64,000 nucleotides of DNA from assembly GCA_930990645.1 (NCBI GenBank), contig CAKNQJ010000001.1, positions 22,260-86,259 on the forward strand. Direction: 5' to 3'. This stretch comes from an uncultured Clostridium sp. (GTDB lineage Bacteria > Bacillota > Clostridia > TANB77 > CAG-508). The translations under genes and the position numbers were made by a program. Shown piece after piece: positions 20,884 to 43,280 of this stretch; positions within the stretch are counted from its first letter, which is position 1; each line of letters opens with the position of its first letter. The notes below the pieces were generated by a model. It was not told where the DNA came from, ran no database searches, and saw only the letters and a program-made list of their open reading frames with translations.

Positions 20884-20940
20884 GAAATCCGTTCCAACTT
20901 GCTGGCAGACATATTTTGTCTGTCACATGGAACTACTTAG
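20884..20940 (+). repeat. Family C structured element, short form (C1)
   Basis: GAAATCCGTTCCAACTTGCTGGCAGACATATTTTGTCTGTCACATGGAACTACTTAG. GTTCCA pairs with TGGAAC and CAGAC with GTCTG. It ends 13 nt before the AGGAGG of the 20968 gene. Confidence 0.65.
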
Positions 20941-20967
20941 TGAATAATTTTCTTAGGAGGAATTAAA

Positions 20968-22215
20968 TTGGAACTTATGACAAAGTATCAATATACATAT
21001 TTTATTTATCCATATGTAATTGATGAAAAAGAATACAAAAAATATTTGCAAGGATTACTTAGGAATAAAAAGTGCAAGATAAGATTTTTTGATAAACAAA
21101 AGGATATACATTTGTATACATATTTTTTACCTAGTATAAGAGAGTACGTGTTTTGGTCATTTGGCTTGAATAAAGCAGGAATACGTGACTTTGAAAAAAT
21201 GGATTCTACACTTAAAGCTACAATGCTTTCAGAACATGATTGCAATATTTTTAATTATGAATTGCCAGAAAATTTACAGGGAAAAGTTGATGTAGAGAAT
21301 GGAATATTTTTTGAGATATCTGAAATAAAAATAATATGTTTTAAATCAGGTATATCTTTTTTAATATTTAAGACAAACATAGAAGGAAATGGTAGCTTTT
21401 CAGATTTATTAAATTTTAATTATAAATTTAGAGAAATAAATTCTGTATCATATAATTTAAAAGATTACGAAAACATAAAGATACAGTCAAATAATTTTAA
21501 AGACGTGAAAGATATATCGATGTTGATAAAAGAATTAACAGGTAGATGTAATATTTCTAGGAAGGCCAATATAGGAAATGATAAATTTTTTGTGTATTCA
21601 TATGCATGTCTAGACCAAAAGGACTGGAATGAAAATACAGAAAGCGATGCATTAAACAATTTGTTTGAAAAGTATAGAAGTGTGCAACCAGCAAATTCAC
21701 AGATGATAGATGATGAGTATGCAACTAAAAATAGTAATATAGAAGAAATAAAGAGTATATATAAAAATCAATATATACGATATGGATTTACGATGTCTAG
21801 TACAGTATTATTTACATCAAATATAAACACTACTAATTTCACAGTAGTACCTCAAAAATTTGAAAGTGAATACTTGTATATGTATATCTTGATTTTATAC
21901 AAAAAGATGACTTTAAATAAATTAAATTATCAATTTAAAAATGGATTTAAAGAAGCAGAAAAGGGATTCCTTGACTTTACAAAAAGATTATGGATACAAG
22001 ACATCACAAATGAGGAATTTGGAAAAAGACTAGAAAAAGTATGGAATGAGAAACTAGATATAGAAAATACTTTTGCAAAGTTAAAAAGCGAATATGATGT
22101 GACATATAAGAAGTACAATGTAGAGGAATTAAATAAGAATAATATAGTCACTTTAGTAATTGTGGCAGTGATACTTGTTATTAATGTGCTTGCAATTTGG
22201 ATAGCTCAAAAATAA
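20968..22215 (+). CDS. Hypothetical protein (415 aa) with single extreme C-terminal TM helix
   Basis: TTG start 8 nt after AGGAGG (alternative ATG at 20977). C-terminal IVTLVIVAVILVINVLAIWIA. No family recognised by eye. Confidence 0.65.
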   Translation: MELMTKYQYTYFIYPYVIDEKEYKKYLQGLLRNKKCKIRFFDKQKDIHLYTYFLPSIREYVFWSFGLNKAGIRDFEKMDSTLKATMLSEHDCNIFNYELPENLQGKVDVENGIFFEISEIKIICFKSGISFLIFKTNIEGNGSFSDLLNFNYKFREINSVSYNLKDYENIKIQSNNFKDVKDISMLIKELTGRCNISRKANIGNDKFFVYSYACLDQKDWNENTESDALNNLFEKYRSVQPANSQMIDDEYATKNSNIEEIKSIYKNQYIRYGFTMSSTVLFTSNINTTNFTVVPQKFESEYLYMYILILYKKMTLNKLNYQFKNGFKEAEKGFLDFTKRLWIQDITNEEFGKRLEKVWNEKLDIENTFAKLKSEYDVTYKKYNVEELNKNNIVTLVIVAVILVINVLAIWIAQK

Positions 22216-22327
22216 TTGGGTTTTGGCGTTGTTGAACTTCACATGCGAAAATCCTCAGCGTACTACATACGTACGCCCCCGGTTTTCTTGTTTGTTCGCC
22301 TAGCCAAAACACCAATTATTTTTGAAC
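22204..22327 (+). repeat. Family A palindromic element, copy 2
   Basis: GCTCAAAAATAATTGG...CCAATTATTTTTGAAC termini with the shared core. It contains the last three codons and TAA stop (22213-22215) of the upstream gene. Confidence 0.8.
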
Positions 22328-22357
22328 ATATGAATAAAAGAATTGGAGGAAGAGGTT

Positions 22358-22759
22358 TTGAAAGTCACAACAGGCATTGATGTAATTGAAGTAGAGAGGA
22401 TAAAAAAAGCTATTGAGGATTTAGGAGATAGCTTTTTAAATCGAATATATACAGAAAAGGAAATACAATATTGTGAAGCTTCAAAGACAATGAAATACCA
22501 GCATTATGCAGCTAGGTTTGCAGCAAAAGAAGCGGTGTTTAAAGCAATGTCTGAGTTTATTATTGGAAGAGAAGATGCTTTGTGGAAAAATATTGAAGTT
22601 TTAAACAAAGAGTGTGGAAAACCTTACATTAATGTGGATAAGTTAAGAGAAAATATTAGTAAAGCTGTGGATGATTTTACTTTGGAGAGCATAGATGTGA
22701 GTCTTTCACATATAGCGGAGTTTGCTGTGGCAAGCGCAGTTATACTGGTTGAAAAATAA
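22358..22759 (+). CDS. acpS: Holo-[acyl-carrier-protein] synthase
   Basis: GIDVIEVERI start, ARFAAKEAVFKA and the LSHIAEFAVASAVIL motifs. I prefer TTG 22358 after GGAGGAAGAGG. The track start 22343 is in frame 15 nt upstream. Confidence 0.85.
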   Translation: MKVTTGIDVIEVERIKKAIEDLGDSFLNRIYTEKEIQYCEASKTMKYQHYAARFAAKEAVFKAMSEFIIGREDALWKNIEVLNKECGKPYINVDKLRENISKAVDDFTLESIDVSLSHIAEFAVASAVILVEK

Positions 22760-22871
22760 TTGGATTTTGGCGTTGTTAAACTTCGCATGCGAAAATCCTC
22801 AACGTGCAAAAAGCACGCCTCCGGTTTTCTTGCTCGTTTGCCTAGCCAAAATGCCAATTCTTTTACAACAG
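22745..22871 (+). repeat. Family A palindromic element, copy 3
   Basis: CTGGTTGAAAAATAATTGG...CCAATTCTTTTACAACAG termini with the shared core. It contains the last codons and TAA stop (22757-22759) of acpS. Confidence 0.8.
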
Positions 22872-22953
22872 GGAGAATGAATAAATAAATAGCAAAATTT
22901 AATTCTTTCACAACAGTAAATGTGTAATAAAGAAAAAAGGGGTGAAAATAAAG

Positions 22954-23751
22954 ATGGAGCTTTTTGATTCGCATGCTCATTATAATGATGAGAAATTTGA
23001 TGAGGATAGAGAAGAGTTAATTCAAAAAATTTACAAATCTGGGGTAAATAGATTAATCAATGCTGGATATAGTTTAGAGTCTTCAAAATACGCTTTAGAA
23101 ATTGCAAAAAAGTATGATTGGATGTATACGATTTCTGGAATTTCTCCAAATGACATTCCAGAAGAAAAAAGCAATCTTGAAAAGCAATTAGATGAACTAG
23201 AAGAGTTTATAAATAAAGAATTGAATACTCATAAAATAGTAGCAATTGGAGAAATAGGACTAGATTATTATTGGGAAAAGGACGAAGACAAAAGAAGCCT
23301 TCAAAAAGAAGCATTTATAAAGCAAATAGAGTTAGCAAATAAATTTAATTTGCCAATCGTAATTCACACAAGAGAAGCAGTGATGGATACTCTGCAAATA
23401 GTAAAAGAGCATAATGTAAAAAAGAAAGGAGTATTTCATTGCTGCCCATTAAATAGAGAATTAGTAAAAGAGGCAATAAAGTTGGGATTTTATATATCTT
23501 TTGCAGGACCTGTTACATTTAAAAATTCCAAAAATGCAAATGAAATAATAGAAATGGTGCCATTAGATAAGATTTTAATTGAGACAGATAGCCCATACTT
23601 ATCACCTGAACCACATAGAGGAAAACGAAATGATTCTAGAAATGTGAGGTATGTTGCAGAGAAAATTGCAGAAGTTAAGCAATTGAGCATAGAGGAAGTA
23701 GCAAAGTGCACTTATGAAAATGCTAATAGAATTTTTGGCATAAACTATTAA
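22954..23751 (+). CDS. TatD-family metal-dependent hydrolase/DNase
   Basis: MELFDSHAHYND start (HxH motif), GEIGLDYYW, VIHTREA and ETDSPYLSP motifs. The track start 22942 (GTG) is also possible. Confidence 0.85.
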   Translation: MELFDSHAHYNDEKFDEDREELIQKIYKSGVNRLINAGYSLESSKYALEIAKKYDWMYTISGISPNDIPEEKSNLEKQLDELEEFINKELNTHKIVAIGEIGLDYYWEKDEDKRSLQKEAFIKQIELANKFNLPIVIHTREAVMDTLQIVKEHNVKKKGVFHCCPLNRELVKEAIKLGFYISFAGPVTFKNSKNANEIIEMVPLDKILIETDSPYLSPEPHRGKRNDSRNVRYVAEKIAEVKQLSIEEVAKCTYENANRIFGINY

Positions 23752-23771
23752 AGAAAACGGAAAATAAAATT

Positions 23772-23803
23772 AAAAGCAGTATAAAAAATGCTATACTGCT
23801 TTT
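23772..23803. terminator. Bidirectional terminator hairpin between the TatD-family gene and htpX
   Basis: 12-bp perfect stem AAAAGCAGTATA / TATACTGCTTTT with A/T runs on both sides. Confidence 0.6.
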
Positions 23804-23819
23804 TGTATTAACTTAAAAC

Positions 23820-24713
23820 TTACTTCAAATTCCTTATTGCCTCAATCCTATCATCTATAGAAGGGTGAGTTGAAAATAAACTTGTTTTTCTTTTCTTTCC
23901 ATCTTTTGCTTTAAATGGACTTACTATATACATATATGCAGTAGCATTATTTGCAGTTCTTAATTCATTTGGGTCGCTATCTAATTTTTGGAGTGCTGAT
24001 ATCAAACCATCTGGATTTCTTGTAAGTTCTACTGCACTAGCATCAGCTAAATATTCTCTACGTCTAGATAAAGCAAGTTGCATTAATTGCCCAAAGATTG
24101 GTGCTAATATTAAGCAAATTAATCCAATTAGCATTAATATTGGATTTCCACCTTTCTCGTTATTATCTCTTCCACCACCCCAGAAAAGTGCACGGCTCAC
24201 TGTATCAGCTAGTATTACTATAAAACCAACCATTACACTAACCACTGCGGAAAGTCTAATATCATAGTTCTTTATATGTGATAATTCGTGTGCAACTACA
24301 CCCTCTAATTCATAATAATCCATTTTATCTAATAGTCCAGTCGTAACGCATATAACTGAGTTTTCTGGATTCCTACCTGTTGCAAAAGCATTAGGTTGAG
24401 GGTCATCCACAACATACAACCTTGGTCTGTGTTCTAGTCCAGATGCGACCATCAGCCCATCTAAAATATTATTTAATTTTTCATATTGCTCTTGATCTGC
24501 TGGATGTGCTCTATTGACGGAAAGAACGATTTTATCACTATAGTAATATGATGCCCAGGATGTTGCAATGGCAAATACCATGGCTATAACAATTGAAAGC
24601 TCACCTAAATCAAATGCCATACATACATAGTAAACGATAAGTGTAATTACTAGTAAAAAAATTGCTATAATAACACCTGTTTTTATTTTATTATTTCTTA
24701 TATCTTCATACAT
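23820..24713 (-). CDS. htpX: M48-family zinc metalloprotease HtpX-like
   Basis: HEXXH motif (AHELSHIKNYD), N-terminal TM helices, and the FSTHPSIDDRI C-terminal motif. Confidence 0.85.
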   Translation of the reverse strand: MYEDIRNNKIKTGVIIAIFLLVITLIVYYVCMAFDLGELSIVIAMVFAIATSWASYYYSDKIVLSVNRAHPADQEQYEKLNNILDGLMVASGLEHRPRLYVVDDPQPNAFATGRNPENSVICVTTGLLDKMDYYELEGVVAHELSHIKNYDIRLSAVVSVMVGFIVILADTVSRALFWGGGRDNNEKGGNPILMLIGLICLILAPIFGQLMQLALSRRREYLADASAVELTRNPDGLISALQKLDSDPNELRTANNATAYMYIVSPFKAKDGKKRKTSLFSTHPSIDDRIEAIRNLK

Positions 24714-24797
24714 AATTTATCATTCCTTTTTGGTATTGTGTAGATAACAATTTTTTGGCGATGAAAAATTCCATCGCCATGTAGTTATCAATAAATC

Positions 24798-25352
24798 CTA
24801 TTTACTAAAACTAACTTTTACATTCTTTTTTGCTTCTTCATTATCTACTTCAAATAATGCTTCGGCTGTGAAGTGGAACATTGATGCAACAAGATTTGAA
24901 GGGAAAACCTCCAATTTTGTGTTGTATCTAGTTACAGTATCATTGTAGAATTGTCTTGAATATGAAATCTTATTCTCAGTGTTTGTAAGCTCTGTTTGTA
25001 ATTCTGAAAAGTTTTGATTTGCTTTTAAATCTGGATAATTTTCAGCAACAGCCATAATTGTTTTTAAAGTGTCTGATAATTCATTATCAAGTTTAGCTTT
25101 TTCATCAACAGTTTTAGCATCATTCCAAGAAGAACGTAAATCTGTAACTTTAGTAAGTACTTCAGACTCATGTGTCATATATCCTTTTACAGTTTCAACA
25201 AGGTTTGGTATTAAATCAAATCTTCTTTGTAATTGGACATCAATCTGACTCCAAGCGTTCTTTACTCTAAGTCTCATTGTAACTAAACTGTTATAAATTG
25301 CTATGAAAGCTATAATTATAACTGCTAGTATTATAAGTATAATCCACCACAT
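24798..25352 (-). CDS. lemA: LemA family protein
   Basis: N-terminal TM followed by [39 protein letters not shown], a typical LemA sequence. The pairing upstream of htpX is a common arrangement. Confidence 0.85.
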
Positions 25353-25511
25353 AACTTGTTTCCTCCTTTTTTCAATATAATATTATAATAACATAATTAT
25401 TAATATTATACAACGATTTTGTGAAAAGTATGTGAAAATTAAATTTGAAAAAATTAGTAATATTTTTGGTACAAGCAACATATAATATAATATGGCCATT
25501 AATTTGAATAT

Positions 25512-25597
25512 AAAGTCCGTTCCATCTTGCTGGTAAACATATTTTGTATTCTCCATGTATTCGAATAAAAAATATGTTTACCACGTGGAACTACTTT
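25512..25597 (+). repeat. Family C structured element, long form (C2)
   Basis: AAAGTCCGTTCCATCTTGCTGG-TAAACATATTTT-[GTATTCTCCATGTATTCGAATAA]-AAAATATGTTTA-CCACGTGGAACTACTTT forms a long imperfect hairpin with a 14-bp perfect inner stem. Confidence 0.7.
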
Positions 25598-25717
25598 ATG
25601 GAAAAAAATTAAATCATAAAGTAAATTACTGCAATTAAGTAGCTTTAATGAATAGGTAACATAAATACAAATTATCAAATTCAACAGGGGCAATTAAAAG
25701 CGGATTTCGTCCAAAAT

Positions 25718-25746
25718 TTGACAGGAAAGAATATATATGGTATAAT
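25718..25746 (+). promoter_or_regulatory. Consensus sigma-A promoter for the 25783 gene
   Basis: TTGACA (25718-25723), 17-nt spacer, TATAAT (25741-25746). RBS AAAGGAGGG lies downstream. Confidence 0.6.
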
Positions 25747-25782
25747 AACTTTGTTGCTTTTAAAGGAGGGAACAAATTAATT

Positions 25783-26790
25783 ATGAAAGGTAATGATAAA
25801 GCGTCCATATCGCTGAGAAAAATAGTATGTATTAGTATAATATTTATTTTTATACTAAGTGTAGGCGTAATGGCAGGCAATGTCAGCTTAAAAAATGTTA
25901 AAATAGTACTTTCAAGTGGTTACGAAATGGATATTTTAACAACTAAAACAAGTGTAAAAGAAATTTTAGAAGAAAATCATATTGTATTATTAGAAGATGA
26001 AAAGGTAACACCAGACACAAGTGAAGAACTTTCAGATAATAATACTATTATAATATCTAAGGAGTCAGAAGATGTAGAGGTAAGTGATAAAGTAGAAAAA
26101 TCTTCTGAAGTTACAACTGAAGATATATTAGATAATTATTCTAAAATAACAGAAAAGATAGTTGTTGAAGAAGAAGTAATACCTTACGAAACAATTACAA
26201 AAGATGTTACGACAGGAAGTGGAACTAAACAAGATAGAGTCGTTCAACAAGGAAAAAATGGATTAAGAGAAATTACTTATAAAGTAAAATATCAAAATGA
26301 TGAAGAAATAGAAAAAACAAAAATTTCATCTAAGGTTGTAAAAAAACCAGTTGATAAAATTATAGAAGTTAGAACAAAGCAAGTTACAACAAGAAGTAGC
26401 AGTACTTCAAGAACAACATATAGTGGGGGAAAATGGTCATATTCTTCAAGTGAATTAGATTTATTATGTGCTATAACTGCACAAGAATGTAGCTCAAGCT
26501 ATACAGGTGCTCTAGCAGTTATAACTACAGCATGTAACAGAACACAAAGTAGTAGTTGGAGAAGATATGGGTCTGACCCACTAAGTCAATATAAAGCTCC
26601 AAGTCAGTTCTGCTATTCAATAGATAGCCATTGGAGAAAAAGATTAAATGGAAATTATCCATCATATGTTAAACAAGCAGTTTTAGATGCATTAAATGGC
26701 AAGAGAAATCACAGTTATTTATCATTTAGAGCAGCTGGTAGCCACTCTGGTGAAATAATAGGTGGAAATGTATATTTCAATTCATTATAA
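25783..26790 (+). CDS. Secreted DUF348 + G5 domain protein with SleB-like cell-wall hydrolase-type C-terminal domain (tentative)
   Basis: DUF348-like VKIVLSSGYEMDILTTKTSVKEILEENHIVL. G5-like ETITKDVTTGSGTKQDRVVQQGKNGLREITYKVKYQNDEEI. The C-terminal LLCAITAQEC...ALAVITTACNR...SQF resembles the Hydrolase_2 family. Confidence 0.7.
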   Translation: MKGNDKASISLRKIVCISIIFIFILSVGVMAGNVSLKNVKIVLSSGYEMDILTTKTSVKEILEENHIVLLEDEKVTPDTSEELSDNNTIIISKESEDVEVSDKVEKSSEVTTEDILDNYSKITEKIVVEEEVIPYETITKDVTTGSGTKQDRVVQQGKNGLREITYKVKYQNDEEIEKTKISSKVVKKPVDKIIEVRTKQVTTRSSSTSRTTYSGGKWSYSSSELDLLCAITAQECSSSYTGALAVITTACNRTQSSSWRRYGSDPLSQYKAPSQFCYSIDSHWRKRLNGNYPSYVKQAVLDALNGKRNHSYLSFRAAGSHSGEIIGGNVYFNSL

Positions 26791-26817
26791 TATAGATTAA
26801 AAGCAATAAGTTGGTGG

Positions 26818-26845
26818 AAGGAGATGGGAGACCATCTCCTTTTAG
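26818..26845 (+). terminator. Terminator hairpin
   Basis: AAGGAGATGG-GAGA-CCATCTCCTT followed by TTT. Confidence 0.5.
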
Positions 26846-26907
26846 TTGAAAAATAATTATAATTTACTAATAAAAATTTAAATAAATTTTGAAAAAGGAG
26901 TAAATAG

Positions 26908-27675: not shown

Positions 27676-27685
27676 AAGAAAGGAA

Positions 27686-28931: not shown

Positions 28932-28990
28932 ACAAAAGTGGCTTATAGATATAATTAGAAGTACTAATTACATTTATAAGCCACTTTTGT
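28932..28990. terminator. Bidirectional hairpin between convergent genes
   Basis: 16-bp perfect stem ACAAAAGTGGCTTATA / TATAAGCCACTTTTGT with a 27-nt loop. Confidence 0.5.
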
Positions 28991-29005
28991 ATGAAATGGA
29001 TAATA

Positions 29006-29545
29006 TTAAGAATCATTATCACTCAAGTAAGAATAATGAGTATTGACATACTTTTGAAGAGATTCCATTGATTTTGATAATTTCTGAGATTCCATTTTGA
29101 TTTTCATATCTAATGTGTATGAAGCATCATCGATTCTATAATCCATCCTCTCTGTTAAAGATTTAACTGCATCGTCAATCTTAGTATTAAGCCTGTCTTC
29201 AACTTCTTGAAGTTTAGCATCAAATCTATCGCTTAAATCTTGAATTCTAGCATCAAGTTTCCTATCAAATTCATCGCTTAAGTTTTGAAGTTTAGTATCA
29301 AACCTGTCACTAAGTTCTTGAATTTTAGTGTCGATCTTCTTATTAAGAGATTCATTGACATCATCGATTTTTTGATTAAGAGATAAATAAACGTTATCTA
29401 TTCTTTCATTTAGAACATTAAAAACATTGTCTATTTTATCATTTAAAGTTTTATGATAAACATCGACTTTAGTATTGAGATTATCAAATTTTGTATCCAT
29501 TTCATTTAATTTAGATAATATTAGAGCTACTGCATCTTGATCCAT
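29006..29545 (-). CDS. Hypothetical coiled-coil protein made of 11-residue (hendecad) repeats
   Basis: About 11 consecutive 11-mers, e.g. LNERIDNVYLS LNQKIDDVNES LNKKIDTKIQE LSDRFDTKLQN LSDEFDRKLDA RIQDLSDRFDA KLQEVEDRLNT. RBS GGAGGTGAG. No TM or signal peptide. Confidence 0.6.
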   Translation of the reverse strand: MDQDAVALILSKLNEMDTKFDNLNTKVDVYHKTLNDKIDNVFNVLNERIDNVYLSLNQKIDDVNESLNKKIDTKIQELSDRFDTKLQNLSDEFDRKLDARIQDLSDRFDAKLQEVEDRLNTKIDDAVKSLTERMDYRIDDASYTLDMKIKMESQKLSKSMESLQKYVNTHYSYLSDNDS

Positions 29546-29869
29546 TTTCTCACCTCCAATCTTTTAACTTAATAATAAAAGTATAACACAATATAAAAAG
29601 AGATGCAAGGAAAATATTTCGACAAAAACTGACAAAAATAGGTAAAACGCTTCATAAATCTACGTTTCTCTTTGCTTATCTAAAACAAAATTTTTTAAAA
29701 ATTTTATTTTATGAAAAATATTTTAGAAAAAAATAAAATGTGTTGGGGCAATAAATTTGAACACTAAAAAACTTAATAAAAACTTAATAAAAAATTAATA
29801 AATTTTCACTTTTGTTCTTAATAATAGTTTGCTATACTAGTTACAATGCATATTTTAAATATATTTATT

Positions 29870-30027
29870 AAAGTCCGTTCCATCTTGCTGGTAGATATAT
29901 TAAGCATCTAAAGTCCGCCTCTATCAAAGCTGTCACATATATTTTGTACTCTCCATGTTTTCGAGTAAAAAATATATGTGACACGTGAGGCTATATAGTA
30001 AAATATATATCTACCACGTGGGACTAC
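29870..30027 (+). repeat. Family C element carrying a second family C element nested inside it (C3 outer 29870-30027, inner ~29910-29996)
   Basis: The outer arms are AAAGTCCGTTCCATCTTGCTGGTAGATATATT ... AAATATATATCTACCACGTGGGACTAC. The inner copy is AAAGTCCGCCTC...CTGTCACATATATTTT-[GTACTCTCCATGTTTTCGAGTAA]-AAAATATATGTGACACGTGAGGC. Confidence 0.7.
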
Positions 30028-30181
30028 CATGTCAAAATAAAATGACAACGCATACTTTGAAAATGCAAAGTCATGAATTGTAATAATGATATAATTCATG
30101 CTATAATAGATGCAGGACAGGACAAAACAAGCCCGTCCCCAATTGTCCTAAAATTTTAAGATTAGAAAGGGATGTAATTTA

Positions 30182-31095: not shown

Positions 31096-33204
31096 ATGGA
31101 GAAAAAGATTTGCATGCCACGAGTATTAAAAAACATAGCATATGTTCTATTTCCGATATTTGCTACAATACTGGTACTTTTAATATTCTGCTTATCATAT
31201 CCACTTGAAAGAGAATCAATAAAAGCGGGAGTGGATTTCTATGATACTAACACATTTGCAGAAGATTATGCAAATGAGATATTTGGAAGTCTAACAACAG
31301 TTGATGTATTAAAAGATAATTATCAAACTGATGCATATAGTTACTATTATTCACATACAGAAACCGTGGAAAATAATGAAGAAGTAAATAGCATAAATTA
31401 TTATATTGACTACTATGGAAGCAATGTAATGTGGCTTATAATAGATAATGATACAAAAATTGCTTATACAAATTTGAGTTACTCATTAGATACAAGTACT
31501 CTTGAGAACATAAAAAATAAAATAATGGCAAATAGCGAAAACTGGAAATACCAAGATGGAAATATTGAGACAACAATAGATAAACTAAGTAATGAAAATA
31601 TTGAGTATATAGACAGTACCTTAAATCAAGAAGGAATAGAGACAATTGGAAATATGGAGCAGAGTAGTGAGGTTAGTAATGAAACAACAGAAGAGAGTAG
31701 CATTGATCTCACAACAGAAAATGCTAGAACAAAAAACAATTATACTATTTATACCGCACTTCTAGATGATATGGAATATGTTGATAGTATCTATAGAGAC
31801 AGACTTTTGTATAACACATTATCTATAGTTAATCAAAATTTAGTATTTTTAATACCATTTTTAATTGGATTAATAATTGCATTAGTTCCTATAATAGTGA
31901 TAGGAATTGGAAGAACAAGAAAGCAAGAAGGTATCAACTTAAATTGGTTTGACAAGATATTAATTGAATTAGCAGCCTTGATTTCAATATTTATAGGGTG
32001 TATAGGAGCAGTATTTACTGTAAGTATTGGTGGAGCTTCTACGATAGTCACATTTACACTCGCTATTTCAATTATGGCTGTTGGCTTACTTATTATGTAC
32101 CTAGCGTGTATTTTCTTCTTTGAAACACTTGTAAAGAGACTAAAAACACATACATTTGTTAAGACAACATTTGCTTATTGGTTGTATATAAAAATAAAAG
32201 GAGTTATATCAGACTTAAAAATAACAAAAAGATTTGTACTATTTTTTATATTATTCATAATAGCTAATTTATTTACATTTGCAATAATGTGGTCTGATGG
32301 ATTTCCTGGAGTAGTATTAACTATTATTTTATATGTAATAACATTTAGCTACCTAACAAAAAGGATAAAGTCATATTCAAAAATAAAAGATGCTATTAAT
32401 GAATTATATAAAGGCGATACTGACATGTACTTGGAAGAAAATGAATTATGCAAAGAAATGCAGGAAACAGGAAAAGAGCTAAACGATATTGCCGGAGGAT
32501 TGTCTAATGCAATAGATGAGAAACTAAAAAGTGAGAGATTAAAGACAGAGCTTATTACAAACGTATCACACGATATAAAAACACCACTTACATCTATAAT
32601 TAACTATGTAGATTTATTGAAGAAAGAAGATGTACAAGGAGAAAAGGCAAAAGAATATTTAGATATATTAGATAGTAAATCACAAAGACTAAAAAAACTT
32701 ACGGAAGATTTAGTTGAGGCATCAAAAGCATCATCAGGAGCAATAAAATTAAACATGGAAAGATTAAATGTAAATGAACTTATAAAACAAATATCTGGAG
32801 AGTTTGAAGATAAATTTAAATCTCATAATTTACAAGAGATAATTACATTTCCGGAGAGCGATTTATACATTAATGCAGACAGTAGATACATGTATAGAGT
32901 ACTAGAAAATATGTATTCAAATATATCAAAATATGCAATGGAAGGAACGAGAGTATATACAGATATAGCAGAAAAAGATGGAGATGTTATAATACAGCTA
33001 AAAAATGTATCAAAACGAAAACTTAACATTAGTGTAGACGAGCTAATGCAGAGATTTGTAAGAGGAGAAGCATCAAGAAATACAGAAGGAAGCGGACTTG
33101 GACTCTCAATAGCAAGAAGCCTAACAGAACTCCAACAAGGTAAGTTTAATATATACTTAGATGGAGATTTATTTAAAGTAACAATAGAACTTAATAAAAA
33201 TTGA
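31096..33204 (+). CDS. Sensor histidine kinase with ~220-aa extracytoplasmic domain and multi-TM region
   Basis: H-box ITNVSHDIKTPLTSI, an HATPase region (ENMYSNISKYA, GSGLGLSIARSL), TM1 near the N-terminus and a cluster of TMs at ~31850-32350. Confidence 0.9.
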   Translation: MEKKICMPRVLKNIAYVLFPIFATILVLLIFCLSYPLERESIKAGVDFYDTNTFAEDYANEIFGSLTTVDVLKDNYQTDAYSYYYSHTETVENNEEVNSINYYIDYYGSNVMWLIIDNDTKIAYTNLSYSLDTSTLENIKNKIMANSENWKYQDGNIETTIDKLSNENIEYIDSTLNQEGIETIGNMEQSSEVSNETTEESSIDLTTENARTKNNYTIYTALLDDMEYVDSIYRDRLLYNTLSIVNQNLVFLIPFLIGLIIALVPIIVIGIGRTRKQEGINLNWFDKILIELAALISIFIGCIGAVFTVSIGGASTIVTFTLAISIMAVGLLIMYLACIFFFETLVKRLKTHTFVKTTFAYWLYIKIKGVISDLKITKRFVLFFILFIIANLFTFAIMWSDGFPGVVLTIILYVITFSYLTKRIKSYSKIKDAINELYKGDTDMYLEENELCKEMQETGKELNDIAGGLSNAIDEKLKSERLKTELITNVSHDIKTPLTSIINYVDLLKKEDVQGEKAKEYLDILDSKSQRLKKLTEDLVEASKASSGAIKLNMERLNVNELIKQISGEFEDKFKSHNLQEIITFPESDLYINADSRYMYRVLENMYSNISKYAMEGTRVYTDIAEKDGDVIIQLKNVSKRKLNISVDELMQRFVRGEASRNTEGSGLGLSIARSLTELQQGKFNIYLDGDLFKVTIELNKN

Positions 33205-33350
33205 CAAAAGGGACACTCCTTTTTGTCAAATTTTTTTTACACTTAGGGACACTCCTTCTTGTCCAAGTTTTTGGATGTTTAGGAGTGTCCCTTTTGTCCA
33301 AGTTTTTGGGCGTTTTGGAGTGTCCCTTTTGTCCCTTTTGTCAATTTTGT
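33201..33350 (+). repeat. Family B repeat cluster, second locus (terminator hairpin 33201-33238 plus GGGACACTCC / GGAGTGTCCC units in both orientations)
   Basis: The first ~42 nt are identical to 18689-18730, and the kinase stop TGA (33202-33204) lies inside the stem. Downstream come GGGACACTCC (33246-33255), then AGGAGTGTCCC (33281-33291) and GGAGTGTCCC (33318-33327). Confidence 0.75.
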
Positions 33351-37800: not shown

Positions 37801-40800
37801 TTTGAAGAAGGGGAGACTACAGCAAAGAAAGATGTAAAAGTAACATATGAAGGATTTGAAACAACATATGAAATTACAATTAAAGACTATATTGCAAAAG
37901 TGGAAATCATACCTCCAAGTAAAACAGAATACAAATATAATGAAGACCTAGATTTATCAGACGCAAAAGTAACAATTACAATGGCAAGTACCCCAGACGA
38001 GCCAATAGAAATACCAGTTACAAGCAATATGATAACAGGTTATGACAAAACACAATTAGAAGAGCAATCAGTAACAATAAAATATACAGATGATGAGGGA
38101 ACAGAACATACAAAACAGTTTGAAGTAAACGTGGTAGATGAAATATTAAGTATGGAACTAGAAGGAACTCCAAAAACAGACTATATTATAGGAGAAGATT
38201 TAGAACTATCTGGACTAAATGTATTAATACATAAATTATCTGGAGATGAAAGAGCTCCAGTAACAGAAGAAATGATATCTGGATATAACAAAGATGAAGA
38301 AGGCTCACAAACAGTAATAGTTACATACAATGAACAAGAAGTAGGAAGATTTGAAGTAAATGTGGCAAATCCAGTAGAAAGACTAGAATGGATTACGAAG
38401 CCAAAAACATCATATGTTATAGGTGATTTATTAGATGTTACAGGTGGAAAGTTTAAGGCAATTAAGAAAAATGGAGACGAAGAAGAAATCGACTTAACAG
38501 AGGGAATGGTATCTGGATTTAATTCATCAACAACAGGAGATAAAACCATAACAGTAACTTATGAAGAAAAAGAATTGACATATCAAATAACTGTAGTAGA
38601 TGTTATAACAGAAATAGAGATAAATGAAACACCAAAAAATAGATACAATTATGGAGAAGAACTAGGAACACCTGGTGGTTCAATTACAGTAAAATATCTA
38701 TCAGGAGCAAATAAAGTAGTAAATATTACACCTGATATGATTACAGACACAGATGGAACACCATTTGATACAACAGATATAACATTTGGAGAAGGACAAA
38801 CTACAGCAAACAAAATGCAAAAAGTAACATATGAAGAATTTGAAACAACATACGAAATTACAATAGTAAACAGTATAAAAGATATAAGACCAACAGAAGA
38901 ACCAAAGAAAAATTATGTAATAGGAGAAGAGTTCCAAGATGACTTAGTGCTAGAGGTAGAAAGAGAAGATGGAACTAAGGTAGAAATACCTGTAACAGAC
39001 GAAATGGTATCTGGATTTGATACAGATACAGAGGGTCCAAAAGAAATAACAATTACATATGAAGAAAACGGAATAGAAAAAGAATACACATATGAAATAA
39101 CTGTAACAGACAGAGTAAACAAAATAGAAATAACAAAAGACCCTAAAAAAGATTACAAATATGGTGAGGACCTAGTAGCAGGAGGAGAAATTACAGTAGA
39201 AAAAGCAAGTGGAGAAAGCGAAGTTATCACAATCACCCCAGAGATGATAACAGGATATGATAAAACACAGCTAGGATCACAAAATGTAACCATAAACTAT
39301 GGCGGACAAACAGTAGACTTTGAAATAACAGTATCTGACTATATTACGGGAGTAGTAATCACACCACCAAGTAAAGTAGAGTATGAGTATGGAGAAGACC
39401 TAGATTTATCAGACGCAAAAGTAACAATTACAATGGCAAGTACCTCAGACGAGCCAAAAGAAGTACCAGTTACAAGTGATATGATATCAGGCTATGATAA
39501 AACTAAAGTAGAATCTCAAACAGTAACAATAACATATAGAGATGATGAAGGAAAAGACCATACAAAAGAATTTGGTGTAACTGTAAAAGATAAAATAAAA
39601 TCAATCACTTTAGAAACAACAGGAGCTAAAACAGAATATAAATATGGAGAAAATATAGATTTAACAAATGTTAAAATGAATGTAGTATATGAAAGTGGTA
39701 ATATAGATGAAATACCAGTAAATACTGGAATGATTAGTGGTTACGATAGTGAAAAGTTAGGAAACCAAACTATTACAGTAGAATATGAAGACTTTACAGG
39801 AACTTTTGAAGTAACAGTAAAAGATTATTTGAAAGATATTAATTTAATACCACCTACAAAAAATGAATATAAAATAGGTGAAAGCTTAGATTTGACAGGT
39901 GGAAAGATTACTGAAATAATGGCTAGTGGAGCAAGTGGAATTTCTCTAGATTTAGCCCTAGATATGGTATCAGGATTTGATAGTAGCACCCCAGGCACTA
40001 AGAAAATTACTGTAACATATACAAAAGATGGAGAAACATATACAAAATATTTTGAAGTTTCAGTAATAAATTCTACTAACAAAATAGAAGTTATAGCACC
40101 TAATAAAACAGATTACAAATATGGTGAAGATTTAGACTTAACAGGTGGAAAAATAGTAATATCAAAAGTTGATGGAACAGAAGAAGAAAAAGAAATAACA
40201 AAAGATATGATTTCTGGATATGATAAAACAAGTCCAGGACAACAGGTAATTACTGTAACATATACAGACGAAAATAATGAAAAATTCACGGGCTCATTTA
40301 TTGTAAATGTAGGAGAAGACTATGTTGTAGGCTATGATTTTACTGCCCCAAGTAAAACAGACTACAAATATGGCGAAGAATTAGATCTAACAGGTGGAAA
40401 AATTACAGAAATAATGGCTAGTGGAAACAAAGGTAAAGTAACAGAAATAACAAAAGACATGGTATCTGGATATAACCCAGAAAAAGAGGGAACACAAGAG
40501 ATTACAGTTAAATATAATGGAAATACATATACTTATACTGTAACAGTAAAAGACGAAATCAAAGGTATTTCGATTAAGGAATACCCAGACAAATTAGAAT
40601 ACAAAAAAGGAGAAACATTAGATGTAACAGGAGGTATTCTAAATGTTGTAAAAGAAAGTGGAATTTACGAAGTAGAAATAACAAAAGATATGGTATCAGG
40701 ATATAATCCTAACAAAACAGGAATTCAAGTAATAACAGTTACTTATGAAGGATTTACAGCAGAATATATGGTGTATGTTGAAAAAGATGAAGAAATAACT

Positions 40801-41640
40801 CCTCCAATAGATACCCCAGACGATGGAGAAGATGATGACAACATTCCACCAACAGATAATCCTGATGATAATAACGGAAATAATAACAACAGCAACGATA
40901 ATAACAACAATAGTGGAAATAATAACAACAGCAACGATAATAACAACAATAGTGGAAATAATAACAACAGCAATGATAATAACAACAATAGTGGAAATAA
41001 TAACAACAGCAATGATAATAACAATAACAACAACAATGGAAACCATGGTACAACCCCAGGTACTAATGGCAACAATAGTAACAATAATAACAGCAATAGT
41101 AACAACATAAATAATAATGCAAATAACAATCAAACTAATAGCAATACAAATGAAAACGATAACAATGAAAACACAGAAGATAAAGAAGAGCAAAACAATC
41201 AAAATAGTCAAAATAATAATGAAAATATTCCTCCAATAATAGGAAATGTTGATGATAATACCCCACCATCAAACAATGCACAAGATTCTTTTAACGAAGG
41301 ATTTATAAGAGGAATAATGGCTGGTATAACAGGTTTAATAACCTTAGCCGGAATATTACTATTAATAATACTATTTATAAAAGACAGAAAGAATGTAAAA
41401 GTATACATTGAAGAAGGAAACGAAAGAGTTTTAGTAGGTAAAGAAAAAGTTACAAATGGTAACAGAAACATAGATTTAAATAAATACTATGACAAGTACA
41501 AAGAAGATGAATACAAAATTGTATTATCTAAGAATATTAGTAAAAAACTTGATAATAAAATAATAAATATTACGGTACATGATAAACATGAAAGAGTAAT
41601 AGTTGATTATCAAGACAAAGAATTTATAGTTAAAACTTAG
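34885..41640 (+). CDS. Giant surface protein (2251 aa): signal peptide, cohesin-like domain, 21 Big_3-type Ig-like domains, Asn-rich stalk, TM helix, 86-aa cytoplasmic tail
   Basis: GTG start 4 nt after the upstream stop, with RBS GGGAGGAA. There are 21 repeats of the pattern P.K..Y.YGE.LDL.GG.I...YA.G (~35550-40790). The N-rich region is 40800-41290, the TM GIMAGITGLITLAGILLLIILFI ~41311-41379 and the tail 41380-41637. Confidence 0.9.
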   Translation: MKGQKRIALITVIIMLVSMFSPYTALINTVKAATGTIEEKPVVFNNLGITTKGNNRILKVQVAIASEEIINGLDLKFTIDTDRIVPCNKNTGTETTNMAMAAAQNAYYAGMLTKEYNNGIYRLTAVENKGGFNIIGEGYIPGEMGDPEFDDPGEGFAGYYPIIDYYFKVLDDDITEENLPTDIFTLTSQTGSLPTGCKIAYMGPSGTEQLSKDLTEMYFKGFAEPDKVIESIAVSINPNETTYEHGDTVDLTGGKIEITYADKSTEEIDMINPDVKIVSGSPADVNNPKVTLEYKGKTCSFNITVNDPIVSLEVSKPMSDLEYDHGENFDFSGLELTATKLSGATEKLTFESEGVSISETQADVNSPNFTQTSDEGDLPVKGTQKITFTYEGKTASQTVVVNDTITGINLISQPNKKVYKYGESLELDGASVRITLGSGASANIDLPDGSIEVSEYNPTMTGAKQNLTVSLNGMQAADTIDVEAYNYIKETKLTEPNKAEYKYGEDLNLAGGRLALIWADGRVTNVNLSEDMVTGYDKTQIKLQELTVTYEANYELSDGSSIKDTFKHTFEVEVINQIESIEITPPTKTIFNHGESLNLEGGSIKVIYADASSSTVDINQATIAESDGSPVNMSPDSYDATNKVSKTLKIKYTEDEVTEEIDFPIEIINDVKSIEMKTLPQTQYNVNEALNLENGEILVTRAQGEPEVIKLSDSRVQVTGFDSSTETDNLLLTVKFTENGISKTTTYNVSIKDTITGIELISQPNKKDYKYGESIDLDGAMIEITKGSGKTQIAVDKGMISSYNPNQLGEQQLTVTYEGHEAADKIIVNVNDYVIGIKVTPPTKTNYEKDEQLDLSGGLVTSIMASGEPGETVDLEEDMITTEFDSTKAGPQELTVEYGGFTDTFTVTVADYITEITINQSPKTEYKYGEELGTPGGSITIHYQSGATQDVNITPDMITDADGTPFDTTDVTFEEGETTAKKDVKVTYEGFETTYEITIKDYIAKVEIIPPSKTEYKYNEDLDLSDAKVTITMASTPDEPIEIPVTSNMITGYDKTQLEEQSVTIKYTDDEGTEHTKQFEVNVVDEILSMELEGTPKTDYIIGEDLELSGLNVLIHKLSGDERAPVTEEMISGYNKDEEGSQTVIVTYNEQEVGRFEVNVANPVERLEWITKPKTSYVIGDLLDVTGGKFKAIKKNGDEEEIDLTEGMVSGFNSSTTGDKTITVTYEEKELTYQITVVDVITEIEINETPKNRYNYGEELGTPGGSITVKYLSGANKVVNITPDMITDTDGTPFDTTDITFGEGQTTANKMQKVTYEEFETTYEITIVNSIKDIRPTEEPKKNYVIGEEFQDDLVLEVEREDGTKVEIPVTDEMVSGFDTDTEGPKEITITYEENGIEKEYTYEITVTDRVNKIEITKDPKKDYKYGEDLVAGGEITVEKASGESEVITITPEMITGYDKTQLGSQNVTINYGGQTVDFEITVSDYITGVVITPPSKVEYEYGEDLDLSDAKVTITMASTSDEPKEVPVTSDMISGYDKTKVESQTVTITYRDDEGKDHTKEFGVTVKDKIKSITLETTGAKTEYKYGENIDLTNVKMNVVYESGNIDEIPVNTGMISGYDSEKLGNQTITVEYEDFTGTFEVTVKDYLKDINLIPPTKNEYKIGESLDLTGGKITEIMASGASGISLDLALDMVSGFDSSTPGTKKITVTYTKDGETYTKYFEVSVINSTNKIEVIAPNKTDYKYGEDLDLTGGKIVISKVDGTEEEKEITKDMISGYDKTSPGQQVITVTYTDENNEKFTGSFIVNVGEDYVVGYDFTAPSKTDYKYGEELDLTGGKITEIMASGNKGKVTEITKDMVSGYNPEKEGTQEITVKYNGNTYTYTVTVKDEIKGISIKEYPDKLEYKKGETLDVTGGILNVVKESGIYEVEITKDMVSGYNPNKTGIQVITVTYEGFTAEYMVYVEKDEEITPPIDTPDDGEDDDNIPPTDNPDDNNGNNNNSNDNNNNSGNNNNSNDNNNNSGNNNNSNDNNNNSGNNNNSNDNNNNNNNGNHGTTPGTNGNNSNNNNSNSNNINNNANNNQTNSNTNENDNNENTEDKEEQNNQNSQNNNENIPPIIGNVDDNTPPSNNAQDSFNEGFIRGIMAGITGLITLAGILLLIILFIKDRKNVKVYIEEGNERVLVGKEKVTNGNRNIDLNKYYDKYKEDEYKIVLSKNISKKLDNKIINITVHDKHERVIVDYQDKEFIVKT
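40876..41031 (+). repeat. 39-nt tandem repeat x4 inside the CDS (encodes GNNNNSNDNNNNS)
   Basis: The unit GGAAATAATAACAACAGCAA(C/T)GATAATAACAACAATAGT starts at 40876, 40915, 40954 and 40993 (the last is diverged). Confidence 0.8.
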
Positions 41641-41793
41641 AACAATTTATAACGCATTATAAATATTTTAAATGAATAAAGCAACGCATAAAATTAGACA
41701 TAATTTGTAACATTGAAGAATAAAAAAAAGCTAAAAATCGATTTTAAAGCAAATTACATCAATCTAGATTTGGGATGGAATGATGTAGCTGTA

Positions 41794-41905
41794 CAAGAAG
41801 AGTAGCCCCAAAAATACTCTTCTTGCATAGGAAATAGATAATCTTAAGTTAGGGATAGGATTATCTATCTAATGATAAAATCAGCCCCAAAATGATTTTA
41901 TCATT
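41794..41905 (+). other. Three consecutive perfect hairpins, two sharing the loop GCCCCAAAA
   Basis: Hairpin 1: CAAGAAGAGTA-GCCCCAAAAA-TACTCTTCTTG (41794-41825). Hairpin 2: ATAGATAATC...GATTATCTAT (41835-41868). Hairpin 3: AATGATAAAATCA-GCCCCAAAA-TGATTTTATCATT (41871-41905). Confidence 0.5.
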
Positions 41906-42048
41906 AGATTTATTAATTATGACCTAGAGAACTGTTTAGGTCTATTAAGAGACAATTGATAAGAAAAAAGACACAGCAAAAAACTAAAAATGTAATGTTT
42001 TAGTTTTATTTGCCGTGTCTTAATATAATTATAACGCTATTTTATAGT

Positions 42049-42300
42049 TTAAGTATTTAAGCTGGATAATTTATATAATTCAGATTCATAATAATTATAA
42101 GTATGTTTACCTATAATGTCAGAATAGTTTTTCATCTGTTTATCTTTACAGTATATGTCAACATTTTGACCATCTAAACTTATTGTAACATATCCCATAT
42201 ACTTTTTTTCATGTGATTTTCCAAATAATTTGCCTTGCATTGGACATAATTTAAAAATATCATAATGGTGCAAGTCAGTTTTATTAATAGAAAATTGCAT
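42049..42300 (-). CDS. Hypothetical small protein (83 aa)
   Basis: ORF with a weak RBS. A hairpin lies downstream (AAGACACAGCAAA...TTTGCCGTGTCTT, ~41968-42021). No family recognised. Confidence 0.4.
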   Translation of the reverse strand: MQFSINKTDLHHYDIFKLCPMQGKLFGKSHEKKYMGYVTISLDGQNVDIYCKDKQMKNYSDIIGKHTYNYYESELYKLSSLNT

Positions 42301-42474
42301 AAAAAATAAATCCTTTCAATAATTTTTTTAATTAGTTATGTTTAAAATAACTTGTAAATACTATATTATTATACCATACTTTACATAAAAAATGAAAACT
42401 ATTGAATTAATTAAAAAAATATAGTAAAATGCAAAAAGTTAGAACAAAATTTGAGGAAAGGAACGAAGGATAAA

Positions 42475-42882
42475 ATGGAAGATAAAGATGTAAAAACAAA
42501 AAAATTAAATAAAATAAATGAAATAAGAAAGATAAAAAGCAAGAAAATTATTATTATATCAATAATTTCAGTGATAATAATTGCATTTATAGCATTAATT
42601 TGTGTATATGCGTTAGATGCAACAAGAAATACTTTTGGAGGAAAAATATCATCTATATTCGAACAGGATAAAGACATAACTGAAGAAAAGGCTGTTACAA
42701 AGGCATTAGATAGATTTACTGAAATGGGAGAAGAAAATCTAATAACAAATGATTTAGAAGTTTTAAAAATAAATAGAAAAGGTGAGTATTACTACTATAT
42801 CTCATCGCCTCAGAATTCACTGGAAATACGTATTTCAGATGGGAAAATAGTAAGAGAAAATAGTGTGCTAGTAGAAGAATGA
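42475..42882 (+). CDS. Membrane-anchored PepSY-like domain protein
   Basis: I prefer ATG 42475; the track start is TTG 42451. It has a Lys-rich N-terminus, [25 protein letters not shown] and a PepSY-like ITEEKAVTKALD...YYYYISSPQNSLEIRISDGKIV. Confidence 0.6.
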   Translation: MEDKDVKTKKLNKINEIRKIKSKKIIIISIISVIIIAFIALICVYALDATRNTFGGKISSIFEQDKDITEEKAVTKALDRFTEMGEENLITNDLEVLKINRKGEYYYYISSPQNSLEIRISDGKIVRENSVLVEE

Positions 42883-43060
42883 CGCTCAAATCTTACGTAA
42901 ATAAGCAAGAGAGCCAATTTCTAACAACAAAAAACATACAAAAAAGGAACTTTACTAAAAAAATAAAGTTTCTTTTTTTGTGCGGAAAATCAAGGGTTTC
43001 AAAAATTATCCACAAAGTACATGAAAAATGTGAATAACTCCAACTTCAAAATATTACAAA

Positions 43061-43089
43061 ATGTAACAAAAATGACAAAAAAATATAAT
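43061..43089 (+). promoter_or_regulatory. Triple 11-bp-phased direct repeat, site C (ATGTAACAAAA ATGACAAAAAA ATATAAT)
   Basis: Repeat starts at 43061, 43072 and 43083. It reads as TGTAAC-N16-TATAAT. The third repeat ends 223 nt before ATG 43312, versus 224 nt at site A. Confidence 0.5.
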
Positions 43090-43220
43090 ATTTTGAAACA
43101 AAACTTTAAAACATAATTATCCGTATATATTATTTATATAATACTATAAAAAGTAGGCATACAGTAATATTGACTTAAAAAATTAAATAATTAAAATATA
43201 TATATTAATTATAAAAGCTA

Positions 43221-43280
43221 CAAAGTCAGTTATGTGTTGATGGCATGTGAAAGCAAATATTTGATACATAGAACTACTTA
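43221..43280 (+). repeat. Degenerate Family C element (C4) in the leader of the giant ORF
   Basis: AAAGTCAGTTATGTGTTGATGG...ATACATAGAACTACTTA compares with the family consensus AAAGTCCGTTCCATCTTGCTGG...CACATGGAACTACTTA. It ends 20 nt before AGGAGG 43301. Confidence 0.45.

Follow-up and report, generated by a model that had tools for sequence, protein, structure and literature searches.

Family C, a covarying hairpin repeat in an uncultured gut Clostridium, is probably a structure-dependent mobile repeat

Family C copies in the window

The DNA analysed here (hereafter the window, a single stretch of 64,000 nt) carries five copies of a hairpin repeat, family C, all on the + strand and designated A, B, C, Cin and D. 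All five were found where a preliminary description of this DNA had placed them, and the conserved and paired segments quoted there are read in the sequence as quoted. L-numbered loci denote DNA of relatives that was compared with the window, L039 being from the same species. The copies are arranged as follows:

20884–20940, + strand: copy A, internally deleted, between a WG-repeat gene and a 415-aa gene; covariance model score 45 bits
25512–25597, + strand: copy B, intact long form, between the divergent LemA and G5 genes; covariance model score 111.6 bits
29870–29901, + strand: outer copy C, 5' part, subfamily GGTAGATATAT; 31 of 32 positions shared with the orthologous L001 copy, which is intact
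29910–29997, + strand: inner copy Cin, intact, nested in C in the same orientation; covariance model score 94.6 bits
29998–30030, + strand: outer copy C, 3' part; 30 of 32 positions identical to L001
43221–43280, + strand: copy D, degenerate and internally deleted, 32 nt upstream of a giant RCC1-repeat ORF

The subfamily of copy B reads GTTCCA / GGTAAACATATTTT / TATTC and that of Cin GCCTC / GTCACATATATTTT / TACTC; the apical 25 nt of outer copy C have been replaced by Cin. A search with the end motifs, allowing up to two mismatches, matched at A, B and outer C only. Copy D is weak in the covariance model (14.7 bits, E about 0.2–0.3) and folds no better than shuffled sequences (z = -1.2). None of 60 Markov-simulated windows produced both of its ends in the correct order and at the correct spacing, and we therefore regard it as a real degenerate copy.

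Copy A had been described as a short form, a type of its own. It proved to be an internal deletion of the long form that is kept, with mismatches, at the same site in L043 (5063–5147), and approx. 29 nt of the apical and 3' part are missing from the window; its stem, taken earlier for a compensatory variant, reflects a secondary pairing instead. Two copies were also said to end 13–20 nt before the Shine-Dalgarno sequence. Measured from the core end (CTAC), this distance is approx. 18 nt for A and 23 nt for D.

Anatomy, folding and covariation of the core

The conserved core of family C comprises approx. 83 nt, preceded by a weakly conserved A/T-rich leader of approx. 14 nt. It opens with an unpaired 5' tail, AAA(G/A)TCCG, and contains three helices, P1 (6 bp), P2 (14 bp) and P3 (5 bp), with an asymmetric internal loop between P1 and P2 (5' TCTTGCT, 3' ACG) and a conserved G.A mismatch between P2 and P3. 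The apical loop has 11 nt (TCCATGTWTTC), and the core finishes with CTAC. Folding was considerably more stable than that of shuffled sequences for A, B, inner C and whole C (z = -6.0, -8.1, -8.4 and -7.6, respectively), with copy B reaching -29.4 kcal/mol. Several functions were considered for this sequence and rejected: a small loop-encoded peptide (neither ATG is preceded by a ribosome-binding site), an internal promoter (TTGCTG and the hexamers downstream of it are wrongly spaced, and the -10-like TAnnnT of the leader has no usable -35) and a terminator read in reverse (no more than three U come after the stem).

In an alignment of 17 distinct copies from relatives, 97.2% of cells pair, as compared with 34–60% in slid-alignment controls, and 12 of the 25 pairs are changed on both sides, a number reached by none of 500 shuffles. 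Among the aligned copies the stems co-vary while no change is seen in the bulges, the G.A mismatch or the loop, a pattern of selection on the structure among lineages that are spreading. The preliminary claim of covariation alongside conserved unpaired bases is thus strengthened on the larger set. Such covariation fits a leader RNA, and a mobile element that depends on its structure would be expected to show it too.

Distribution and fate at the same sites in relatives

Family C copies were found in three species, with G5-protein identities of 94–96%. None was detected in relatives at 87–90% identity, of which 105 kb of syntenic DNA was covered, nor in 85 kb from a further related species. The element-free relatives (87–90% identity) keep the same genes and promoters, with sites A, B and C empty.

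Among close relatives, the sites differ in their state. At site A, L057 has a decayed 5' half with a foreign 130-nt insert at the apex, and in L052 the element is cleanly absent. Copy B is absent from the same-species contig L039, which is 99.9% identical over the adjoining 831 nt; elsewhere, site B holds a remnant in L043, a decayed copy in L057 and, in L052, a copy two-thirds over-written by another subfamily. Site C, nested in the window, holds an un-nested intact copy in L001 and L052 and a decayed one in L043. Between L001 and L043, this element differs at 12 of 86 positions (14%), its flanks differ by 12–15% plus indels, and third codon positions by 22%. At site C, where it can be measured, a same-site copy therefore diverges like the non-coding flanks and shows no extra constraint. 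L043 accounts for all 12 differences, and the L001 copy matches the consensus of its subfamily; some copies must therefore have been either refreshed by gene conversion or selected. For site H, an empty allele was sought through GH57 homologues; the nearest relatives obtained are of a species without family C, in which the 3' end of the upstream gene differs and the junctions are unreadable.

Searches beyond these relatives gave no hint of a described family. The preliminary description had proposed a scan of Rfam; the whole window gave no match there at gathering score, and positions 20000–44000 yielded nothing relevant up to E = 10. BLAST against phage and plasmid collections gave no match, two scans of viral contigs gave nothing or a chance match, and the searchable literature, with the end sequence also entered as text, contained nothing relevant. 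Pattern matches in genomes and metagenomes (L003, L005 and 26 of the 29 loci L008–L036) were recognised on reading as high-GC chance matches and discarded. Family C appears to be undescribed, in a lineage known from metagenomes only.

Spread, insertion signature and nesting

The first 82 nt of copy B are identical to L002:4981–5066, an unrelated locus in another species, and identical cores of 82–83 nt recur between loci that are not orthologous, in different species too (B and F; H, I and I2), a sign of recent spread. Direct repeats flank the element at two sites:

20859–20869, + strand: upstream 11-bp direct repeat TAGTGAATAAT, site A; 11 of 11 identical to the downstream copy, p about 0.01 or less
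20938–20948, + strand: downstream 11-bp direct repeat, site A
29843–29856, + strand: upstream direct repeat ACAATGCATATTTT, site C; 12 of 14 match in the window
30045–30058, + strand: downstream direct repeat ACAACGCATACTTT, site C

At site A, a 14-nt leader (20870–20883) follows directly on the upstream repeat, and L052 has the 11-bp sequence once and no element, i.e. a clean empty site. The site C repeat is exact in L001 (12 of 12, ACAACGCATATT, p about 0.01). At both sites the duplications are set off from the core by a leader of 14–15 nt, with trailers of 1 and 17 nt. Clear flanking duplications are confined to these two (A and C) of about 14 sites, none being significant at the others, and the youngest-looking copies have no flanking duplication. 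Site G is filled in one strain and empty in another with near-identical flanks, again with no duplication. The inserted unit at site A, as bounded by the duplication, begins ATGGAATTATAC and finishes GGAACTACT. Terminal inverted repeats are absent from the ends of the inserted units, the flanks of 15 copies share no common terminal sequence, and there is no fixed target tetranucleotide, the base before the core being mostly T.

The landing places are A/T-rich intergenic or intercistronic DNA and, strikingly often, the apical part of other hairpin repeats, family C itself included. Besides Cin within C, the copy within B in L052 belongs to subfamily iii, the same subfamily as Cin; copies E, I and I2, and probably G, lie inside another inverted-repeat family. 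Neither a partner enzyme nor an autonomous element was found in the DNA examined: a Pfam scan of the genes adjoining copies revealed no transposase, and no case of family C ends lying far apart around a gene was found in 434 kb of low-GC DNA (<36% G+C), which is a small sample.

Neighbouring genes, promoters and orientation

The neighbours of family C are unrelated housekeeping genes, 2–13 kb apart, among them the spoIIIA operon, HU, pfk, GH57 and a two-component system. Downstream of copy B in the window lies a feature of its context, which is not part of the element:

25718–25746, + strand: promoter of the G5 gene, TTGACA-17-TGgTATAAT, matching the consensus at 12 of 12 positions

This promoter is kept in all relatives, the element-free ones included, and as copy B lies approx. 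120 nt upstream of it, B is not in the G5 leader. Site C lies between two conserved promoter-like boxes and, being just downstream of a conserved -10 box, is probably transcribed. Site A is intercistronic, copy D lies downstream of a promoter-like site, and copy J is situated between spoIIIAE and spoIIIAF, co-directional with them.

Fourteen of 15 copies are co-oriented with the downstream gene, at 28–186 nt from its start codon; between same-direction genes, eight of nine are co-directional, and no copy lies between convergent genes. The shared orientation of copy and downstream gene holds in the window, but the copy at L004:4613–4698 in a relative is opposite to both neighbouring genes. It should be noted that the orientation of B and C is uninformative, as both lie between divergent genes. 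The position always upstream of + strand genes is thus a bias in orientation and toward intergenic DNA, not a rule, and replication direction explains it equally well: transcription and replication each have one exception as its cause, and the sole antisense copy is on what local GC skew suggests to be the leading strand.

A probable mobile repeat and alternative readings

Family C is probably (approx. 0.7) a mobile repeat that depends on its structure and is non-autonomous, of the same kind as MITE, REP, BOX and ERIC elements. This view is based on copies that are present, absent or decayed at orthologous sites, on the identity of copies between unrelated loci, on nesting, and on a target duplication with its empty site. 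Of the two readings offered by the preliminary description, a structured RNA or a hairpin-recognising mobile element, the second is thus favoured. The promoter downstream of B, genes that work without the element in sister species and the flank-like divergence speak against a conserved 5'-UTR regulator.

Family C would spread as DNA within a small clade of gut Clostridium that are uncultured, spore-forming and low in GC (about 29%). Most likely, a putative trans-acting enzyme recognises the single strand in its folded state, bulges and loop being fixed, and then copies or moves the element. Recognition of the fold would require that spreading lineages keep perfect stems through paired changes, with several subfamilies as the result. 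Once landed, copies are under no detectable host constraint, and they are seen deleted, mutated, over-written or lost. As they lie within or adjoining transcription units and are mostly co-directional, some are presumably transcribed, with possible incidental effects on the processing or stability of the mRNA.

A related reading, which overlaps with that of a mobile repeat, is that the host also uses the repeat as RNA in places, as happens with REP, BOX, ERIC or Correia elements; it would serve there as a stabiliser, processing site or translational occluder. The co-directional copies inside operons (site A and J) would suit such a use, as would the outer inverted repeat at site F, which pairs upstream DNA with the start-codon region, and the L001 copy at site C, which stands at the subfamily consensus despite diverged flanks and a diverged L043 counterpart. 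In addition, the wobble pairs of decayed copies lean toward the + strand (8 G.U versus 3 A.C), but this asymmetry is not significant and other mismatches are equally common. Given the decay at many sites, any host use would be local and dispensable, and the orientation bias is as well explained by replication; we regard this reading as unlikely.

That family C is instead a cis-regulatory structured RNA (leader or riboswitch-like), controlling the downstream genes, we hold to be quite improbable. Covariation alongside conserved unpaired bases, the co-orientation of 14 of 15 copies, which would fit a role at the RNA level, the location of C downstream of a conserved -10 box and the closeness of A and D to a ribosome-binding site would all be in keeping with it. 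However, B lies upstream of a promoter kept in every relative, sister species have the same genes without the element, and same-site copies are deleted or decay at a neutral rate. Furthermore, cores identical over 82–83 nt at unrelated loci do not resemble regulatory RNA families, no common function links the downstream genes, and the set includes a nested copy and another that runs antisense to the genes beside it.

Spread by copy-and-paste through RNA or a single strand (retro-element-like or by templated repair) would give variable 5' extensions and 11–12-bp duplications. It would accommodate the 11 and 12 bp duplications of unrelated sequence, the poorly conserved leader of 14–15 nt with trailers of 1 and 17 nt, the unit ends without terminal inverted repeats and the bias to the transcribed orientation. 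Against this, duplications occur at two sites only, with none at G, no reverse transcriptase was seen near the copies, and we know of no precedent in bacteria for such small non-coding elements; we therefore find this route very improbable. A palindromic DNA operator for a regulator, centred on CCACGTGG, can practically be dismissed: the CACGTG motif never varies and, at B and C, is found upstream of promoters, but the 5' tail, the one-sided bulges and the loop make the conserved features asymmetric and are needless in a duplex palindrome site, relatives have the same promoters without the element, and copies lie inside operons and other repeats.

The mobile-repeat reading carries a caution for genome scans. 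Covariation and conserved loops alone are not a marker of regulatory RNA: a structure-dependent mobile repeat yields the same signal, and only same-site comparison across relatives tells the two apart. The mechanism is tractable through the fixed bulges, co-varying stems, self-nesting and the filled and empty alleles.

Comparison with known systems

BOX, ERIC/IRU and Correia-type elements are small structured intergenic repeats of Streptococcus pneumoniae, enterobacteria and Neisseria. Like them, family C is non-coding, about 60–160 nt in size, folds into a long imperfect hairpin and has no gene of its own; it is dispersed in intergenic and intercistronic DNA, where those elements are often co-transcribed, has long and short forms produced by internal deletion or insertion, and varies in presence between close strains. 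Its sequence is unrelated and its host a Clostridium; it lacks the TA duplication and 26-bp terminal inverted repeats of Correia elements and the A-B-C modules of BOX. In contrast to all three, its stems strictly co-vary between subfamilies while bulges and loop are fixed, and it has landed repeatedly in hairpin tops.

REP sequences and REPINs are moved by RAYT (Y1 HUH) transposases; REPs are 20–40 nt long, with a conserved 5' tetranucleotide, and usually form inverted pairs. IS200/IS605-derived palindromic elements insert 3' of a fixed target of 4–5 nt with no duplication. As in these systems, a folded single strand with conserved unpaired bases beside the stem is probably recognised in family C, the orientation bias could follow replication, and the unit ends have no terminal inverted repeats. 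The reverse strand of family C opens with (N)TAG followed by a stem, resembling the GTAG of REP. Its core, however, is 83 nt with three helices, its copies stand alone or nest in one orientation and do not form inverted doublets, and the 11–12-bp duplications at A and C differ from the products of Y1 enzymes, which make none; the DNA examined showed no RAYT or TnpA gene.

MITEs moved by DDE enzymes, such as MIC231/IS231 (IS4 family), have duplications of 10–12 bp. Family C is likewise short, non-autonomous and hairpin-forming, with bursts of identical copies and an 11–12 bp duplication at two sites, but its unit ends are neither conserved nor inverted repeats and a duplication is undetectable at most copies; the DNA examined yielded no related insertion sequence. 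With integron attC sites, whose recognition is strand-specific, it shares the conservation of structure above sequence and the fixed extrahelical bases and bulges. An attC identity was nevertheless rejected, as the R''/R' core sites (RYYYAAC / GTTRRRY) are absent, and its neighbours are housekeeping genes, not cassette arrays beside an integrase.

The repeated nesting allows a further, speculative proposal, to which we assign a low likelihood: that the candidate enzyme reads the folded single strand and prefers to insert into exposed DNA hairpin tops, both of family C and of the unrelated inverted-repeat family. Were this so, hairpin repeats in these Clostridium genomes would grow by nesting, and such structure-to-structure homing would differ from the DDE, Y1 and integron routes known so far, pointing to an unknown way of moving DNA.

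Copies of family C and their shared structure

The window is chromosomal DNA from a low-GC, spore-forming clostridium (its genes include SpoIIE, MinC, a penicillin-binding protein, TatD and LemA). The five copies of the hairpin repeat family C listed in the preliminary description were present and read as described when the sequence was inspected at their coordinates.

Copies of family C in the window
20884-20940, + strand: copy A, short
25512-25597, + strand: copy B, long form, 86-88 nt
29870-30030, + strand: outer copy at C, encloses the inner copy
29910-29997, + strand: inner copy at C, long form, 86-88 nt, enclosed by the outer copy
43221-43280, + strand: copy D, degenerate

Predicted hairpin stability was far above that of shuffled sequences (z = -6 to -8.4) with the exception of D (z = -1.2); D passed the paired-ends test, against 0 of 60 simulated windows. 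No match to the end motifs at ≤2 mismatches was found elsewhere in the window, and an unfiltered covariance-model scan of its full length gave no additional convincing copy. The short form A is the long form minus approx. 29 nt, with a stem that represents a secondary pairing rather than a compensatory variant.

Two pattern scans, one of species-representative genomes and one of metagenomes, returned eight true family C matches among many high-GC chance ones. All eight are in DNA of low GC content; five come from genome records, in MAGs labelled uncultured Clostridium or Clostridia. Scanning this genome and related ones with a covariance model had been proposed earlier; such a model, trained on nine long copies, detected further copies in the true-match loci and in syntenic contigs. 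Across 17 distinct copies, the three-helix hairpin (P1-P3) is paired in 97.2% of cells, with changes on both sides in 12 of 25 pairs; none of 500 shuffles attained the observed pairing and covariation values, and pairing in slid registers was just 34-60%. The stems co-vary between subfamilies while the unpaired features stay fixed: the 5' AAA(G/A)TCCG, the one-sided bulge TCTTGCT facing ACG, the G.A mismatch between P2 and P3 and the loop TCCATGTWTTC are invariant. Together with the two controls, this confirms the original observation, covariation included.

The same sites in related genomes

Family C is mobile, spreading to new sites and decaying after landing. The syntenic region of relatives was retrieved via homologues of the G5 protein; in species at 87-90% identity, sites A, B and C are without any copy, though gene order and promoters are kept. 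In the three carrier species, the same site is found in different states. At site A, the copy is internally deleted in the window, long with mismatches in the related locus L043, and decayed in its 5' half in locus L057, where the apex has received a foreign insert (L057:4744-4988; approx. 130 nt, with a perfect hairpin of its own); in locus L052, site A is exactly element-free. The copy at site B, intact in the window, is absent from L039, a contig of the same species with 99.9% identity across the 831 nt next to the site; L043 retains a remnant and L057 a decayed copy, and in L052 two-thirds of it have given way to a copy from another subfamily. At site C, the window has the nested form, L001 and L052 a simple copy and L043 a decayed one. 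Comparison of L001 with L043 at this site gave 12 differences in the 86 positions of the element, against 12-15% in its flanks and 22% at third codon positions in the neighbouring gene.

Copies at distinct sites may be identical. The first 82 nt of B are those of copy F (L002:4981-5066) in another species, and the 83-nt cores of copies H, I and I2 are the same, I and I2 lying at unrelated loci in two species with immediate surroundings approx. 75% alike. Site A carries an exact 11-bp duplication on either side, and in L052 it is empty and unduplicated, base for base; a 12-bp direct repeat brackets site C. Site G is filled in one strain and empty in another with near-identical flanks. The alternative allele there is a simple hairpin from another repeat family, and the loop sequence of that hairpin stands on both sides of the family C core when the site is filled.

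The region also varies beyond small repeats, as extra genes in the syntenic block of L052 demonstrate: two large PemK-domain proteins and an AAA_14/DUF4143 ATPase (L052:5126-7718 and 11228-12532). A 179-aa coiled-coil-like gene (29006-29545, - strand), found in the window and near-identical strains, is missing at this place in L001 and L043, and an indel therefore adjoins site C. The giant ORF at 43312-64000 (+ strand; >6,800 codons, running beyond the window end), with RCC1-like and Big_2 domains in tandem modules of roughly 1.39 kb, and the preceding 2,251-aa Big_3 protein are missing from the corresponding position in the sister species (L043, L052).

Residence in hairpin tops and neighbouring repeats

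Family C frequently resides in the tops of hairpins. At C, the inner copy has taken the place of the outer copy's top; in L052, copy B contains an insert of the same subfamily as that inner copy; and an inverted-repeat family with arms GTTACTGTTCAG / CTGAACAGTAAC harbours copies E, I and I2, each at 13-16 nt from the left arm. This second palindromic family (L006:3829-3998, L007:1259-1432, L043:17933-18098 and L064:8892-8953) is solitary in L064 and hosts family C copies elsewhere, with just one weak candidate in the window (15862-15940). A form with arms GTTGCAATTCACGGCTA / TAGCCATGAATTGCAAC is possibly related to it. Weak flank motifs occur at about half of the family C copies, WAWAGY preceding the core by approx. 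6-11 nt and (T)AAGCA shortly after it (e.g. L014:645-655, L028:4987-4997 and the 3' flanks of sites D, F, I, J and L). At site G, they match the loop of the host hairpin (TTGTTT and TGCAAAA in L064), and they may reflect a target preference or host-loop sequence that was carried along.

Two further structures were noted in the window. At 33200-33345, 3' of a histidine-kinase gene, GACAAAAGGGACACTCC occurs three times, with copies inverted relative to one another and arms of 100% complementarity; in L048 and L049, similar AAGGGACACTCC units precede the response-regulator gene. These units are probably another repeat family. A 27-bp hairpin at 28932-28990 (93% complementary, 5-nt loop), between the convergent AI-2E transporter and 179-aa genes, is a possible two-way terminator; though unrelated to family C, it gave a weak score with that family's model on either strand (approx. 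15 bits).

Regulatory RNA and orientation

The preliminary description had left two readings, a functional structured RNA or a hairpin-recognising mobile element. The second is the better supported; a conserved regulatory RNA is opposed by the variability of sites in relatives, the identical copies at unrelated loci, the promoter position and the neighbouring genes. The perfect promoter of the G5 gene (25718-25746), kept in every relative, is downstream of B, which therefore lies outside the leader of this gene, and the genes adjoining copies show no common feature (spoIIIA operon, HU, phosphofructokinase, a GH57 enzyme, a two-component system). Mismatch types in decayed copies (8 G.U, 3 A.C and 9 other) did not point significantly to selection at the RNA level. 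Transcription is probable for some copies, namely A, within an operon, and C, immediately 3' of a conserved -10 box, and such copies might alter mRNA fate. At site F, an outer inverted repeat (L002:4929-5100, - strand; complementarity at 17 of 22 positions) has one arm 13-34 nt upstream of the core and the other at the start-codon region of the fn3 gene that follows; if transcribed, the repeat could occlude that start codon.

That all copies share the orientation of the downstream gene holds as a bias, not as a rule: between same-direction genes, 8 of 9 are co-directional and one is antisense, and no copy lies between convergent genes. Transcription and replication directions coincide in the carrier genomes, and local GC skew suggests that the single antisense copy is on the leading strand, so either direction could underlie the bias.

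Mobilisation and comparison with known families

The folded single strand of family C would be the substrate of a trans-acting enzyme, which would account for perfect stems being kept by spreading lineages only. Approx. 0.45 Mb of related DNA yielded no partner gene. A PD-(D/E)XK 'transposase' (Rpn/YhgA-like, PF12784) is encoded in the window at 2389-3306 (- strand), with no adjoining family C copy. Neither a DDE nor a Y1 route is a clean fit: a poorly conserved leader of 14-15 nt sets the duplications at A and C off from the core, the ends of the inserted unit are not inverted repeats, and most copies have no flanking duplication.

The suggested comparison with Rfam, by a scan of the window, gave no family C match; none was found in Rfam, phage or plasmid collections, nor in the searchable literature. 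In the way it works, family C resembles small structured repeats from other bacteria (BOX, ERIC, Correia, REP and MITEs), but it fits the definition of none; it is a clean example of covariation arising from mobility rather than from host function, and its possible preference for hairpin tops adds to its interest.
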